This document shows, one piece after another, positions 11,582 to 17,749 of a stretch of DNA of 64,000 nucleotides (its first letter is position 1; every line of letters starts with the position of its first letter). The DNA comes from a plasmid, in sequence record NZ_CP044080.1. The stretch is one strand, 5' to 3'. The notes beneath the pieces were generated by a model. The model was not told the origin of the DNA. It searched no databases and was given only the letters and a program-made list of their open reading frames with translations. The position numbers were made by a program, and so were the translations under genes.

Positions 11582-11836
11582 ATGGCAAGAATTCCGAACG
11601 ACCTGATCGCAGACCTGCGCAATGCGCTGCACGACCTGGGGGGCGCCTCGGCCGAGGCGTCCGACCTGATCCGCGAACAGTTGGGGGCCGATGCGTCGCG
11701 TGCCTTCGACGATGTGCTGGCGGCCTGCTACCAGATCGTCGAGGCCGCAGCGGAATCGCGCACACTTGCAGACCCTGGCCTGGTGCCGCCCCGGCAACTC
11801 AACGGCCAGGCCATGCGGATCGCGGCGGCGGCCTAG
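11582..11836 (+). CDS. Small hypothetical acidic protein
   Basis: ORF only (MARIPNDLIADL...). No recognisable domain. It is convergent with the LuxR gene. Confidence 0.3.
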   Translation: MARIPNDLIADLRNALHDLGGASAEASDLIREQLGADASRAFDDVLAACYQIVEAAAESRTLADPGLVPPRQLNGQAMRIAAAA

Positions 11837-12999
11837 TCCAGCGGGTCCATCACAAAGCTGGCGCCGATGCTGGACGCCAGCCGGATCAGCTGCGTCCGGT
11901 TCGCGCAATCGGCCTTGGCCAGCAGCGACTTGACCTGCGAATTGATAGTCTCGACCGAGCGGTTGCGCCGGTCCGAGATCTGGCGGTTGGTCAGCCCCTC
12001 GGCCAGCAGCCCGACCAGCCGGGTTTCCGATTGCGTCAGCGTCAGCACCTTGGCCAGCAGGTCCAGGTCCAGCGGCAGCTCCCGCCCGGTATCCAGGCTG
12101 TAGATCGCATAGCCGTCCAGCCGCCGCTCGCCAAAGGCATCGGCGGACGTCAGCGGAGAGATTTCCACCGCAAGCCGCCCGCAACTGGCCTGACGCCCGC
12201 CAAGCGCCTCTTTCCGGGGCCGGGCGCCGCAGCGGCCGTGGTCGCGCGCATCCGCCGTCATCGCGTGCAGCCATTGCCGGTCGGGCGCGGCCCGCATCTC
12301 CAGCCGCCCCGCCCCATCGCGAAAGAACACCCCCGCCGCTTCGCGCTGGCGGGCGAATTCGACGTTCTCGCAGATGATCTGGCGATCGCCCCGGATCAGG
12401 CAGACGCCGATGCGCAGCCGGTCCATGGCCTCGGCCAGGCCCGCATAGGCGGTGCTCAACTGACGCAGCGGACGGCCCAGGTGCAGGGCCTTGGCGACAT
12501 GGGGCAGGATCGTGGCCAGGGCCGCGCGCTCGGCCCCGCTCATCGGCCCGTGCCGGCGCGAGAACTGGACCGAGAAGCGGTCGCGCGACAGGTCGTCCTT
12601 GTTCAGGACGGCGCCGGCCCGGTAATGGACGCCGTGCCGGGCCATCTCTTGCGCATTGGGTCGCAGGGCCAGGGCGCTGTGCTCGGGCGCCAGGACATCG
12701 TCGCCCACGATCTCGATCCGGTCGCCGCGCGCGGAATGGCGGGCGATGATCTCCTGGTCGGCGAACTCCTCCTCGGCAAAGCGATGGATGTAGCCGTCGA
12801 CCAGAACCGGGTCGTAGGCGGCCGAGAAATGGGGCGCCCGCAGCTGACGCGCGCGCGGATCGGCCTCGTCCAGTTCAAAGATGATGCAGCCCCGCGCACC
12901 CACGGCCCGCGCGATCCGGTCAAGCACCCCAGGCCACCGACCGGCGTCCAGCACGGTGTCGTAGATGTCCAGGATGACCTGTTCGTCGGGCTCTTGCAT
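11833..12999 (-). CDS. LuxR-family transcriptional regulator (C-terminal GerE-type HTH, large N-terminal sensory region)
   Basis: The C-terminus TQSETRLVGLLAEGLTNRQISDRRNRSVETINSQVKSLLAKADCANRTQL is a LuxR HTH. It is divergent from the haem-protein operon. Confidence 0.75.
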   Translation of the reverse strand: MQEPDEQVILDIYDTVLDAGRWPGVLDRIARAVGARGCIIFELDEADPRARQLRAPHFSAAYDPVLVDGYIHRFAEEEFADQEIIARHSARGDRIEIVGDDVLAPEHSALALRPNAQEMARHGVHYRAGAVLNKDDLSRDRFSVQFSRRHGPMSGAERAALATILPHVAKALHLGRPLRQLSTAYAGLAEAMDRLRIGVCLIRGDRQIICENVEFARQREAAGVFFRDGAGRLEMRAAPDRQWLHAMTADARDHGRCGARPRKEALGGRQASCGRLAVEISPLTSADAFGERRLDGYAIYSLDTGRELPLDLDLLAKVLTLTQSETRLVGLLAEGLTNRQISDRRNRSVETINSQVKSLLAKADCANRTQLIRLASSIGASFVMDPLD

Positions 13000-15135: not shown

Positions 15136-16106
15136 CCCTTCCCCCGCCAGGCACGAGGCCCGCCGTGATCCAGCAAGATGCCCAGACCGTCGCCGATATC
15201 CAGACCCAGATCATGCAAGCCACGGCCCCGCATTTGCGCGGGCAGCATCCCAAGATGCACGGCTGCGTCGCCGCCCTGTTCGAGGTCCTGCCGCTGCCGC
15301 CGCCGCTGGACCAGGGCCTGTTCGCCCGGCCCGCCCGGTTCGATGCGCTGGTGCGCCTTTCCAACGGCAGGGAAAGGGACGACCGCAAGCCGGATGCGCA
15401 TGGCATGGCGATCAAGCTGCTGGGTGTTGCGGGCGAAAAGGCCATGCCCGAGGCGCCCGAGGGCGAACAGGATTTCATCCTGGTGGACAACCCGGTGTTC
15501 TTCATTCGCAACGCGGCGGATTATGCCCGCTTCATGGCTCTGGTCGCTGCCGACAGGAAGGCGGAGTTCCTGGCCTATCTTCACCAGACCCACCCCGAGG
15601 ATGTTGCCGTGCTGACGTCATTCGCGCAGCACATCCAGGCCGACCCGCTGTCGGCGACCTACTGGGGACAGGTGCCCTATGCGCTGGGACCGGACCCCGC
15701 CACCGCCTGCCGCTATCGCGCGGTGCCGCGCGTGCCCGCCCCGGACGACAGCCCCGGCGCCACGCCCGATTACCTGCGCGAGCGGATGGTGGCGCGGCTG
15801 GCGCCCGAGGCGTCGCCGGTGGTCTATGACCTTCAGGTGCAACTGCGCCAGGACGCCGATGCGGCGGTGATCGAGAACCCGACCGTCGAATGGGACACCC
15901 CCTTCGTGACCGTCGGCACGCTGACCATTCCGCCCCAGGACTTCGATACGCCCGAACGCCGCGCCCGGGGCGAGGGCCTGCGCTTTTCGCCCTGGCACGC
16001 CCTGGCGGCGCATCGTCCCCTCGGAGAGATCAACGCCGTGCGGCGCGTGGTCTATCCGGCCAGCCAGGCGCTGCGCGCCGCCAGCAGCGGGAAGGCCGCG
16101 TCATGA
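15132..16106 (+). CDS. Catalase-related haem protein (mini-catalase / catalase-related hydroperoxide-transforming enzyme family)
   Basis: Catalase-core-like distal region (RGQHPKMHGCVAALFEV, LVRLSNG). Size about 320 aa. The start codon is uncertain (TTG 15132 or GTG 15165). The stop overlaps the next start (ATGA). Confidence 0.65.
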   Translation: MTLPPPGTRPAVIQQDAQTVADIQTQIMQATAPHLRGQHPKMHGCVAALFEVLPLPPPLDQGLFARPARFDALVRLSNGRERDDRKPDAHGMAIKLLGVAGEKAMPEAPEGEQDFILVDNPVFFIRNAADYARFMALVAADRKAEFLAYLHQTHPEDVAVLTSFAQHIQADPLSATYWGQVPYALGPDPATACRYRAVPRVPAPDDSPGATPDYLRERMVARLAPEASPVVYDLQVQLRQDADAAVIENPTVEWDTPFVTVGTLTIPPQDFDTPERRARGEGLRFSPWHALAAHRPLGEINAVRRVVYPASQALRAASSGKAAS

Positions 16107-17749
16107 CCGCCACCGCCCGGCCCCACCCCCCGCGCGACACCTCGGCCGACGGCTGGGGCAACCGCCTGCAAGCCTATGCGCTAAGCCATTTTCCGGCGCT
16201 GTGGCGCGGCGTCATGGCGGTGCCGCCGCTGCGGCGCCTGGCCAACGACAAGATCGTGGACATGGCCGTGCGCCGTGCGCCCGCCCGCCCCATGGCCTTC
16301 GGCGCGATGACCGCGCGCGCAGACAGCGCGGCCAGTTGCAGCGCCGAATACACCTCGTGGGAAATGCTGACCGACCTGGGCTGGTACAAGCGCCACCTGC
16401 CGCAGGTTCCCCTGCGCACGGACCCGCCGCTTGACGACGTGGTCGCGCTGTTTCGGACCGATCCGGGCGGCGGCGTCCCGTCCGAGGACAGCAGCGTCCT
16501 TTTCATGTCCTTTGCGCAATGGTTCACCGACGGCTTCCTGATGACGGACGCGGTGGACCGGCGCCGCACCCACAGCAGCCACCAGATCGACCTGAATCCG
16601 CTTTACGGCCTGACGCGGGCCGAAACCGATGCGGTGCGCCTGCGCTCCGAGGAACGGGGGCGCCGCGGCCGGCTGAAGGTCGAGCGGATCAACGGCGAGG
16701 ACTTCGCGCCCCGGTATTACGACGACGCCGGCAACCCTCGCGCCGAATTCGGCGCGCTGCGCAAGCCGCTGCGTCTGGACGAATGGCGATCCAAGGCGCC
16801 ACCGGACCGGGACGAGGCGGTCAAGGCAACCCTGTTCGCCTTCGCGGGCGAGCGGGCGAACAGCACGCCTTATACCGCCATGCTGAACACGTTGTTCCTG
16901 CGCGAACACAACCGCCTAGCCGGCGTGATCGAGAAAGCCCACCCCGGCTGGGACGACGAGCGCGTGTTCCAGACCGCGCGCAACGTGACCATCGTCCTGC
17001 TGATCAAGATCGTGATCGAGGAATACATCAACCATATCTCGCCCTATCATTTCCAGCTGACCGCCGATCCGGCCGTCTGCTGGCGCAAGTACTGGAACCG
17101 GCAGAACTGGATTCCTTTGGAATTCAACATGCTTTATCGCTGGCACAGCCTGACGCCGGACCGCTTTGCCATAGCCGGTCAGGAGATCCTGGCAACTGAC
17201 CTGCTGTTCAATCACCAGCCGCTGGTCCAGCATGGGCTGAATGCAATGATGCAGGCGGCAAGCGACCAGCGCGCCCGCCAGATCGGGCTGTTCAACACGC
17301 CCGATTTCCTGATCCCCGTCGAGGCGAGCACCCTGCAGCAATCCCGAGACCAGCGGCTGGCCTCGTACAACGACTACCGGCAGGCCTTCGGCTATGGCCG
17401 GGTCAGGCGGTTCGACCAGATCACCGGGGATCCGCGCCGGATCGAGGCACTTCAGGCGCTTTACGGCGACGTGGATCAGGTCGAGTTCATGGTGGGACTG
17501 TTCGCCGAGGACATCTCGCCCCGCTCGGCGGTGCCGCCGCTGATCGGGCGGATGGTGGCTCTGGACGCCTTTTCGCAGGCGCTGACCAATCCCCTGATGG
17601 CGGAATGCGTGTTCACGCCGGCCACCTTTTCGGAACCCGGATGGCAGGCGATCCAGGAAACCCACCGCTTGCAGGACATTCTGGACCGCAACACGCCACC
17701 CGGGACGGCCCCGCCCCGGGTTACGATGACGCTGCCGCCCGCGACCTGA
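16103..17749 (+). CDS. Animal-haem-peroxidase family protein, cyclooxygenase / fatty-acid alpha-dioxygenase-like
   Basis: COX-like motifs are present: THSSHQIDLNPLYG (distal His region), ERVFQTARNVTIVLLIKIVIEEYINHIS (matches the COX FQTxRLILIGETIKIVIEEY region), and NMLYRWHSL (catalytic Tyr plus proximal His, NxLYHWH in COX). Confidence 0.8.
   Translation: MTATARPHPPRDTSADGWGNRLQAYALSHFPALWRGVMAVPPLRRLANDKIVDMAVRRAPARPMAFGAMTARADSAASCSAEYTSWEMLTDLGWYKRHLPQVPLRTDPPLDDVVALFRTDPGGGVPSEDSSVLFMSFAQWFTDGFLMTDAVDRRRTHSSHQIDLNPLYGLTRAETDAVRLRSEERGRRGRLKVERINGEDFAPRYYDDAGNPRAEFGALRKPLRLDEWRSKAPPDRDEAVKATLFAFAGERANSTPYTAMLNTLFLREHNRLAGVIEKAHPGWDDERVFQTARNVTIVLLIKIVIEEYINHISPYHFQLTADPAVCWRKYWNRQNWIPLEFNMLYRWHSLTPDRFAIAGQEILATDLLFNHQPLVQHGLNAMMQAASDQRARQIGLFNTPDFLIPVEASTLQQSRDQRLASYNDYRQAFGYGRVRRFDQITGDPRRIEALQALYGDVDQVEFMVGLFAEDISPRSAVPPLIGRMVALDAFSQALTNPLMAECVFTPATFSEPGWQAIQETHRLQDILDRNTPPGTAPPRVTMTLPPAT

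Follow-up and report, generated by a model that had tools for sequence, protein, structure and literature searches.

Bacterial oxylipin enzymes of two types are known from separate organisms: haem-containing relatives of cyclooxygenase (COX) and di-haem cytochromes c acting as dioxygenases and diol synthases. In Nostoc punctiforme, a COX-like linoleate 10S-dioxygenase (10S-DOX) shares a gene tandem with a catalase-related 10S-hydroperoxide lyase (Brash et al. 2014, as summarised in a 2026 JBC review, PMC13049297). According to that review, the dioxygenase oxidises oleate as well as linoleate and carries the motifs F143tdsF and DAFxQA, with Ile483 and Ala487 at the positions of COX Gly526 and Ser530. 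In Pseudomonas aeruginosa, PA2077 (a 10S-DOX) and PA2078 (a 7,10-diol synthase) constitute the oleate-diol synthase and are classed as ‘fatty acid di-haem cytochrome c peroxidases’ (FadCCPs; PMC4496055). Bacterial COX-like enzymes were still described as uncharacterised in a 2025 review (PMC11941309). Here, we describe a locus within a 64,000-nucleotide stretch of a Paracoccus yeei plasmid (sequence record NZ_CP044080.1; hereafter the window, to which all positions refer unless a locus is named), in which a RoxA-like di-haem cytochrome c, a catalase-related ‘mini-catalase’ and a COX-like protein are encoded in a row downstream of a divergent regulator. To our knowledge, the Nostoc enzyme is the only bacterial COX relative with a known reaction. 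We consider it probable (about 0.62), judging from sequence and predicted structure, that the three P. yeei genes encode a membrane-associated, three-enzyme oxylipin module that oxygenates unsaturated fatty acids and converts the resulting hydroperoxides. The locus comprises the following features:

11833-12999, minus strand: GerE/LuxR-family regulator, 388 aa (Pfam GerE, E = 1.4e-07)
13000-13272: divergent intergenic region, 273 bp
13273 (ATG)-15135, plus strand: RoxA-like di-haem c-type cytochrome, 620 aa
15165 (GTG)-16106, plus strand: mini-catalase (catalase-related haemoprotein), 313 aa
16103 (ATG)-17749, plus strand: putative COX-like haem dioxygenase (An_peroxidase), 548 aa

What the present analysis establishes is how the genes are built, which families and folds their products belong to, that catalytic residues and linkage are conserved, which fusions occur and which topology is predicted. 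The four genes were identified in the window (G+C ~68%) by open reading frame (ORF) listing, translation and third-position GC, and all four lie where an initial annotation, made from the sequence alone, had placed three haem-protein genes and a divergent regulator. The family assignments of that annotation were each borne out by profile, structure prediction or fold search. It had also proposed TGA/ATG overlaps at both gene junctions: the catalase and COX-like genes do share an ATGA overlap (16103-16106), while the junction between the cytochrome c and catalase genes (15132-15135) reads TTGA, a TTG/TGA overlap with no ATG. Initiation at TTG 15132 would yield a catalase of 324 aa. GTG 15165, which is preceded by GAGG at 6-nt spacing and is the start used by PGAP and by metagenome gene callers (cluster P0001), is the more likely start codon, and would leave a 29-nt spacer after the cytochrome c gene and no overlap. 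A terminator scan identified no terminator-like sites inside 13273-17749. Three other P. yeei plasmids carry the operon at 98.6-98.8% identity, and on P. yeei pYEE46822P13 the catalase is 99% identical at the protein level. RefSeq labels the three products ‘hypothetical protein’ (cytochrome c), ‘catalase family protein’ and ‘peroxidase family protein’ (COX-like).

The COX-like protein matches Pfam An_peroxidase (PF03098, E = 1.6e-45). Searching the PDB by sequence, residues 25-530 align best with COX-2 and COX-1 (E = 1e-61 to 1e-53; COX-2 entry 5KIR, 3.7e-61), and the weaker matches, to peroxinectin, lactoperoxidase, alpha-dioxygenase and myeloperoxidase, are at 1e-18 or weaker (plant alpha-dioxygenase 1e-15; myeloperoxidase 1e-13 or weaker). 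The protein had been annotated as a COX/alpha-dioxygenase-like haem peroxidase; the COX part of this description stands, and an alpha-dioxygenase identity is rejected, at 1e-15 versus 1e-61 to COX-2. The COX alignment starts within the membrane-binding domain, part of which is retained, and the epidermal growth factor (EGF) domain of animal COX is absent from the protein in the PDB alignment. The segment LY345RW347H348 aligns with COX LYHWH (Tyr385, Trp387 and His388), and Tyr308 and Tyr315 correspond to COX Tyr348 and Tyr355; equivalents of Tyr385, Trp387, His388 and Tyr348 are invariant in 22 COX-like homologues, and that of Tyr355 is at least nearly so. Val485 and Ala489 occupy the COX Gly526 and Ser530 positions (position match taken from PMC13049297), and the protein carries the terminal motif D488AFSQA. 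Neither the Gly526/Ser530 environment nor the EGF domain of a true cyclooxygenase is present. Val485, Ala489, the missing EGF domain and the motifs in common with the Nostoc 10S-DOX (F141TDGF and D488AFSQA) suggest that the protein is a mono-dioxygenase of the Nostoc type and not a cyclooxygenase that forms endoperoxides. Bacterial relatives of COX are numerous (>3,000 proteins matched in the search), and the COX-like gene occurs without partners in Cypionkella, Bradyrhizobium and one metagenome-assembled genome. In two other loci, a second, distinct An_peroxidase gene is convergent to the COX-like gene (L001, 2774-4665, where it is broken into two ORFs; L002, 8559-10433), followed by a metallo-beta-lactamase-fold gene and a gene for a large GAF/guanylate-cyclase signalling protein.

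The mini-catalase scores 17.2 bits against Pfam Catalase, under the gathering score of 25, and a PDB sequence search with it returned no match. Its relationship to catalases is instead evident from the AlphaFold2 model (pLDDT 93.0), for which Foldseek ranks Mycobacterium avium MAP-2744c (3E4W/3E4Y; E ~3e-16, TM-score ~0.7) and the coral allene oxide synthase (AOS) cAOS (1U5U; E = 8e-14, TM-score 0.76) above true catalases, in agreement with its annotation as a catalase-related mini-catalase. The model shows the catalase core fold that defines this group (~300-370 residues) and lacks the C-terminal domains found in true catalases. Its haem site is formed by Arg25, distal His28 (in a Gln-His pair), Asn109, Arg293, proximal Tyr297 and Arg304, and the motifs R25/H28/K30 (RxxHxK) and R293/Y297/R304 (RxxxYxxxxxxR) are invariant in 28 mini-catalase homologues. 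No signal peptide was detected on the mini-catalase. In the closest relatives, the catalase gene encodes ~665 aa with two tandem catalase-like domains (L006, 8565-10559; L007, 9932-11989; L089, 5944-7953; L094, 5632-7635). The second of these domains is divergent (HMM E = 4.8e-10) and retains RGTH and RxxVYxxxxxxR motifs.

The cytochrome c opens with a hydrophobic N-terminal signal segment (residues 1-27, MRTGKASCLAAGLAIAVLLAGPVAAQ) and contains two CXXCH haem c motifs (C164GAC167H168 and C426GTC429H430), the MauG-type motif P517YLH520NGSVP and the sequence QW361DGS at the position of RoxA F301-W302. Residues Cys164, Cys167, His168, Cys426, Cys429, His430, His520 and His586 are invariant in 38 cytochrome c sequences and match the haem-binding and distal-His positions of RoxA and PA2077/PA2078 (Table 1, PMC4496055). 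The protein carries Pfam RoxA-like_Cyt-c, and RoxA is the sole Foldseek match of its model (pLDDT 88.3), which has a RoxA-type fold; a profile of the 38 sequences is collinear with RoxA (3.5e-17). All features that define RoxA/FadCCP-like proteins (a secreted chain of ~600-680 aa, two CXXCH motifs, PY(F/L)HNGSVP and a C-terminal His) were found, and the earlier description of a secreted di-haem cytochrome c of FadCCP size and architecture is upheld by the signal segment, the two CXXCH motifs, PYLHNGSVP and the RoxA-like fold. Identity as a rubber oxygenase orthologue is rejected, since scores against the NCBIfam RoxA, RoxB and RoxC equivalogs (40.9, 44.9 and 61.9 bits) are far under the cut-offs of 900-1000; the score against NCBIfam NF040606 (127 bits) is likewise under its cut-off of 150. 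By sequence, the cytochrome c belongs to a separate clade, here called group A. This clade is small, with 137 proteins matching at E = 1e-30 or better among 1.84 billion cluster representatives. Because its N-terminal segment is of the Sec type, the cytochrome c is predicted to be periplasmic. A tandem fusion of two RoxA-like di-haem units, one NF040606-like and one of group A, also exists (P0342, 1258 aa) and would be a four-haem protein.

Conservation of the gene grouping was assessed by a genome scan, with one genome per species and seeded by catalase alone (12-sequence alignment), which returned 80 loci on which HMMs of the three families were run. A RoxA-like di-haem cytochrome c is encoded within 3 kb of catalase in 39/80 loci. 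Group A cytochromes c occur in 12/80, all within 3 kb and 11 of them directly upstream of catalase; in L013, the gene is on the opposite strand, downstream of catalase. The COX-like gene is found in 12 of the 80 loci, and in 11 a RoxA-like cytochrome c and the COX-like gene are both present. Grouping of the three genes is far above chance, and the co-occurrence check suggested with the initial annotation is thus positive across three phyla, Alphaproteobacteria, Planctomycetota and Acidobacteriota. Carriers of the trio are Paracoccus, two species of Rhodovulum, Ensifer, Amaricoccus, Methylobacterium and Allosphingosinicella, together with three Planctomycetota genomes and one Acidobacteriota genome, and further searches added Roseibium and Mesorhizobium. 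Identities to Rhodovulum are similar for the three proteins (64-66%, 62-63% and 62%), indicating that the trio travelled together. Catalase and COX-like genes without a cytochrome c (L001, L002 and L073) represent the known Nostoc-type pairing. In the COX-less loci L010, L016 and L042, the position right after catalase is taken by the gene for an additional di-haem cytochrome c, which belongs to NF040606 (485-516 bits), and an NF040606 di-haem cytochrome c likewise directly follows catalase in L013. This suggests that the COX-like enzyme and a di-haem oxygenase may be interchangeable through non-orthologous displacement, in keeping with the fatty-acid dioxygenase and diol synthase activities known for the di-haem enzymes of P. 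aeruginosa. In Sinorhizobium fredii HH103 (L086, 10001-20501), the protein named y4iM is orthologous to the window cytochrome c (62% identity); three insertions of the IS21 family interrupt the catalase gene that follows, and a patatin is encoded in the vicinity.

Natural fusions connect the three families directly. A catalase::COX fusion of 872 aa with a Gly-rich linker, present on four contigs, is 53% and 55% identical to the window catalase and COX-like proteins and lies downstream of a group A cytochrome c gene. It too lacks the second catalase-like domain, so that the single-domain catalase appears to be a working variant. The gene directly after this fusion in L092 (9236-11137) encodes a 633-aa flavoprotein of the amine oxidase family. 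Four further proteins (P0461, P0465, P0482 and P0489) are catalase::transmembrane (TM)-helix::cytochrome c fusions that have no N-terminal signal peptide and exactly one predicted TM helix, located in the linker; their catalase is therefore predicted to be cytoplasmic and their cytochrome periplasmic. In the window, only the cytochrome c has a signal peptide, the catalase and COX-like protein having none, which suggests that the split proteins share the topology of these fusions. A different arrangement is seen in Planctomycetia, where a secreted fusion of ~1270 aa joins an NF040606 cytochrome c, a mini-catalase and an acetoacetate-decarboxylase-like domain (ADC, PF06314; L057, 7979-11791, also L055, L056 and L060); here the signal peptide precedes the cytochrome c, and all domains would thus be exported. 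Catalase::patatin fusions also exist.

Genes for lipid-cleaving enzymes recur beside the trio. In both Rhodovulum species, the gene immediately after that for the COX-like protein encodes a patatin-like phospholipase, and in Mesorhizobium a patatin gene lies downstream of the COX-like gene with one short ORF between; in Ensifer, the COX-like gene is followed by a gene for a Tle1-type phospholipase. L002 encodes a patatin and a FadL-type transporter, and patatin genes lie near catalase in at least six further loci (L010, L011, L040, L044, L047 and L086). The phospholipase link is recurrent, not obligatory. Taken together, the fusions and adjoining phospholipases lend independent weight to the idea that the substrate is a lipid. 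Among 124 surveyed flanking ORFs, two Oxidored_FMN (old yellow enzyme) genes were also noted.

The divergent gene upstream had been described as a LuxR regulator with a large sensory domain. A divergent gene with a GerE helix-turn-helix (residues 320-375, Pfam 1.4e-07) and an N-terminus of ~310 aa is indeed present; residues 1-319 gave no Pfam match even at E = 10. Because it has no autoinducer-binding domain, the protein is better classified, on its sequence, as a regulator of the GerE family that carries an uncharacterised N-terminal domain of ~310 aa than as a classical LuxR quorum-sensing receptor. The region 13000-13272 presumably holds promoters and an operator for the regulator and the operon; a search of it for the sigma-70 consensus gave no match, and a repeat search found short inverted repeats only, the meaning of which is uncertain. 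No homologue of the regulator was found by tblastn in any catalase-seeded locus, and it is therefore not part of the conserved core. Rhizobium plasmids and the megaplasmid of Ruegeria pomeroyi encode homologues that are 42-46% identical to it, each adjoining a gene annotated ‘di-heme-cytochrome C peroxidase’, and a regulatory link between the regulator and the cytochrome-led operon is supported by this adjacency. The NF040606 di-haem cytochrome c genes beside regulator homologues lie in L095 (8025-14646), L097 (5974-12628) and L096 (5654-9155). In Ensifer, a gene for a Trypsin_2 protein lies ahead of the cytochrome c gene (L007, 5057-7759).

Genes flanking the P. yeei locus are unrelated to the operon: upstream are 3-oxoadipate genes, a permease gene and a FUSC transporter gene, and downstream are DUF3008, DUF2934, glgX and sugar nucleotidyltransferase genes. 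The two small genes DUF3008 and DUF2934 (17754-18271, minus strand) lie directly downstream of the COX-like gene and convergent with it, and a stretch of ~36 bp inside the DUF3008 gene recurs on P. aminovorans plasmids.

For the proposed oxylipin module, we infer a sequence of steps, with its substrate, products and control, as follows. The starting point would be an unsaturated fatty acid in free form, either endogenous 18:1 or host-derived 18:1, 18:2 or 20:4, probably freed in the relatives by the co-encoded patatin or Tle1-type phospholipase. The COX-like enzyme would sit on the cytoplasmic face of the membrane, attached through its COX-type membrane-binding region, where a Tyr345 radical near the His348-ligated haem may abstract an allylic or bis-allylic hydrogen, followed by insertion of O2 to give a fatty-acid hydroperoxide. 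The mini-catalase with its Tyr-ligated haem, whose gene is translationally coupled to that of the COX-like enzyme and in some bacteria is fused to it, would then rearrange, cleave or reduce this hydroperoxide as a lyase, allene oxide synthase, epoxy-alcohol-forming enzyme or peroxidase. From the opposite side of the membrane, the periplasmic RoxA-like cytochrome c may draw on that lipid pool too, serving as a second oxygenase or a hydroperoxide isomerase, like the di-haem 10S-dioxygenase and 7,10-diol synthase of P. aeruginosa. The operon would be controlled by the divergent GerE-family regulator.

A number of observations weigh against this proposal. The distal His207 of COX, which supports peroxide activation in that enzyme, is replaced in the P. 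yeei protein by Asp143 (in F141TDGF), and this Asp is invariant in the 22 homologues. A Thr-His distal pair has been proposed as the hallmark of hydroperoxide-converting catalase relatives; the mini-catalase has Gln27 before its distal His, kept as RGQH across the 28 homologues. The P. yeei catalase is also without the second catalase-like domain present in its closest relatives. Since the cytochrome c is predicted to be periplasmic and the catalase and COX-like protein have no signal peptide, a simple soluble three-step pathway does not fit, and intermediates must cross the membrane or sit in it. No phospholipase gene adjoins the operon in P. yeei, and the 124 flanking ORFs surveyed include no universal lipid-related neighbour (patatin 3, metallo-beta-lactamase 3, AAA_16 4). 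In Rhizobium, the regulator-linked di-haem cytochrome c is followed by S8/S53 and trypsin-like serine proteases, not by catalases. Finally, Paracoccus makes mainly mono-unsaturated 18:1 and no polyunsaturated fatty acids (PUFA), and the substrates are therefore likely to be mono-unsaturated acids or host lipids. Oleate is oxidised by both the Nostoc 10S-dioxygenase and PA2077 (PMC13049297, PMC4496055).

Three other explanations were weighed. If the operon served peroxide defence, its three products would be peroxidases removing H2O2 or lipid hydroperoxides that arise from the host or from oxidative stress, namely a periplasmic cytochrome c peroxidase, an organic-hydroperoxide peroxidase (the mini-catalase) and a haem peroxidase, both cytoplasmic, and no oxylipin would be synthesised. 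The RefSeq names of the catalase and COX-like proteins and the host association of P. yeei and many other carriers agree with such a role, as does the nearest solved relative of the mini-catalase, MAP-2744c, which Pakhomova and colleagues reportedly found in 2009 to be an organic-hydroperoxide-dependent peroxidase. We nevertheless regard it as unlikely: the COX-like clade has lost the distal His needed for efficient peroxidase chemistry while keeping the radical-forming Tyr invariant, and true peroxidases are far more remote from it than COX and the Nostoc 10S-DOX are (1e-18 or weaker versus 1e-61). Moreover, the cytochrome c is nearest to the oxygenase RoxA and not to cytochrome c peroxidases, the phospholipase genes and patatin fusions suggest generation of a substrate and not detoxification alone, and no OxyR/OhrR-type regulator is present.

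The cytochrome c and mini-catalase could alternatively form a conserved unit across the membrane that acts on a substrate other than a fatty acid, for instance by RoxA-type cleavage of an isoprenoid or other alkene or by MauG-type oxidation of a protein or peptide, with the COX-like gene as an optional accessory. Pairs of these two genes greatly outnumber the trio (39 against 11 of the 80 loci) and are fused in several lineages; RoxA, the nearest solved relative of the cytochrome c, cleaves polyisoprene, MauG-like relatives modify proteins, and the proteases paired with the regulator-linked cytochrome c in Rhizobium, together with the Trypsin_2 gene ahead of the Ensifer cytochrome c, also speak for such a unit. 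Weighed against the RoxA/B/C equivalog scores of 41-62 versus 900-1000 bits, the catalase::COX and catalase::patatin fusions that tie the catalase to fatty-acid chemistry, the ATGA coupling, which speaks against independent roles of the catalase and COX-like genes, and the occupation of the slot in COX-less loci by another di-haem oxygenase-type protein, a unit of this kind seems rather improbable. Least credible, and in our judgement very improbable, is a decaying or accidental remnant without joint function, stranded on a plasmid among unrelated genes. In its favour, the second catalase-like domain and the phospholipase of the relatives are missing from P. yeei, and the homologous catalase gene of S. 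fredii HH103 is broken by IS21 elements; yet every ORF of the trio is intact, with 98-99% conservation over four P. yeei plasmids, the catalytic residues of all three proteins are in place, the natural catalase::COX fusion is also single-domain, and gene order is conserved across phyla.

It is tempting to extend the oxylipin module further. The trio, with the phospholipase and second catalase domain of its relatives, might form a self-contained lipid-mediator system different from all those characterised so far, in which the COX relative and mini-catalase on the cytoplasmic face and the di-haem oxygenase in the periplasm would work on the two leaflets of one membrane, turning fatty acids of the membrane or the host into a new class of oxylipin signals sensed by the dedicated GerE-family regulator, a proposal that we hold to be doubtful. 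If true, it would be an alphaproteobacterial counterpart of Pseudomonas oxylipin quorum sensing in host-associated bacteria, used by P. yeei on human skin, by Roseibium and by carriers of rhizobial symbiosis plasmids. Irrespective of this extension, the locus provides, in a human-associated bacterium that can be cultivated, a compact set of three genes that is both defined and conserved, in which the products of a COX-like enzyme can readily be tested, and should interest specialists in oxylipins and haem enzymes. The fusions, and the apparent interchange of the COX-like protein with a second di-haem cytochrome c, give rise to testable predictions on the division of roles. Should the products be bioactive, the module would bear on lipid signalling between hosts and microbes, as it is carried by an opportunistic pathogen and by rhizobial symbiosis plasmids.

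According to the initial annotation, the exact trio is not known to have been described as one operon. A literature search covering RoxA-like and catalase clusters, y4iM/y4iL and bacterial cyclooxygenase found no description of it, an absence that is no proof, and the COX-like and catalase pair within it had already been characterised in N. punctiforme, according to the review cited above. Already known, each separately, are the tandem of COX-like and catalase genes and the fatty-acid oxygenases of the di-haem type; in the literature searched, no description was found of their conserved union in one operon, of the double catalase, of the fusions or of the cross-membrane arrangement.

Compared with the Nostoc tandem, matched through the motifs described in PMC13049297, the P. 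yeei locus likewise has a COX relative of ~545 aa beside a separate catalase-related gene. The two COX relatives share the equivalents of the catalytic Tyr, proximal His and Tyr348, the Asp in place of the distal His (FTDxF), the terminal DAFxQA motif, a bulky residue and Ala at the Gly526 and Ser530 positions, and retention of part of the COX membrane-binding domain. The P. yeei operon differs in being led by the RoxA-like di-haem cytochrome c, the most constant partner of the catalase, in having close relatives with two tandem catalase-like domains and a phospholipase, and in belonging to an alphaproteobacterium without PUFA. As compared through their published features (PMC4496055), PA2077, PA2078 and the window cytochrome c are all periplasmic di-haem cytochromes c of ~620-634 aa with a signal peptide, two CXXCH motifs ~245-262 residues apart, PY(F/L)HNGSVP, a C-terminal His and a RoxA-like fold, and PA2077 shares Gln-Trp at the RoxA F301-W302 position. 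However, haem 2 and the MauG-type motif are separated by 178 residues in PA2077 versus 90 in the window protein, and the Pseudomonas system consists of two di-haem enzymes with no COX-like or catalase-like partner. Similarity to RoxA of Xanthomonas sp. 35Y (PDB entry 4B2N) reaches a global TM-score of only ~0.4, and the partners of the window cytochrome c (catalase, COX-like protein and, in relatives, phospholipase) point to fatty acids and not polyisoprene.

With coral AOS (1U5U) and MAP-2744c (3E4W), the mini-catalase shares a catalase core of ~33-40 kDa, a Tyr-ligated haem and a distal His, and as in the coral fusion of AOS to 8R-lipoxygenase (3DY5), a mini-catalase is partnered, and sometimes fused, with a fatty-acid dioxygenase. 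In contrast to these proteins, to which it is 20-23% identical with no match in sequence searches, the mini-catalase has Gln, not Thr or Val, before the distal His; its partner dioxygenase is a haem COX relative and not a lipoxygenase, and a di-haem cytochrome c is an additional partner or fusion. The P. yeei locus would thus unite, in a single operon, the COX-like dioxygenases and the di-haem cytochrome c dioxygenases and diol synthases hitherto known from separate organisms.

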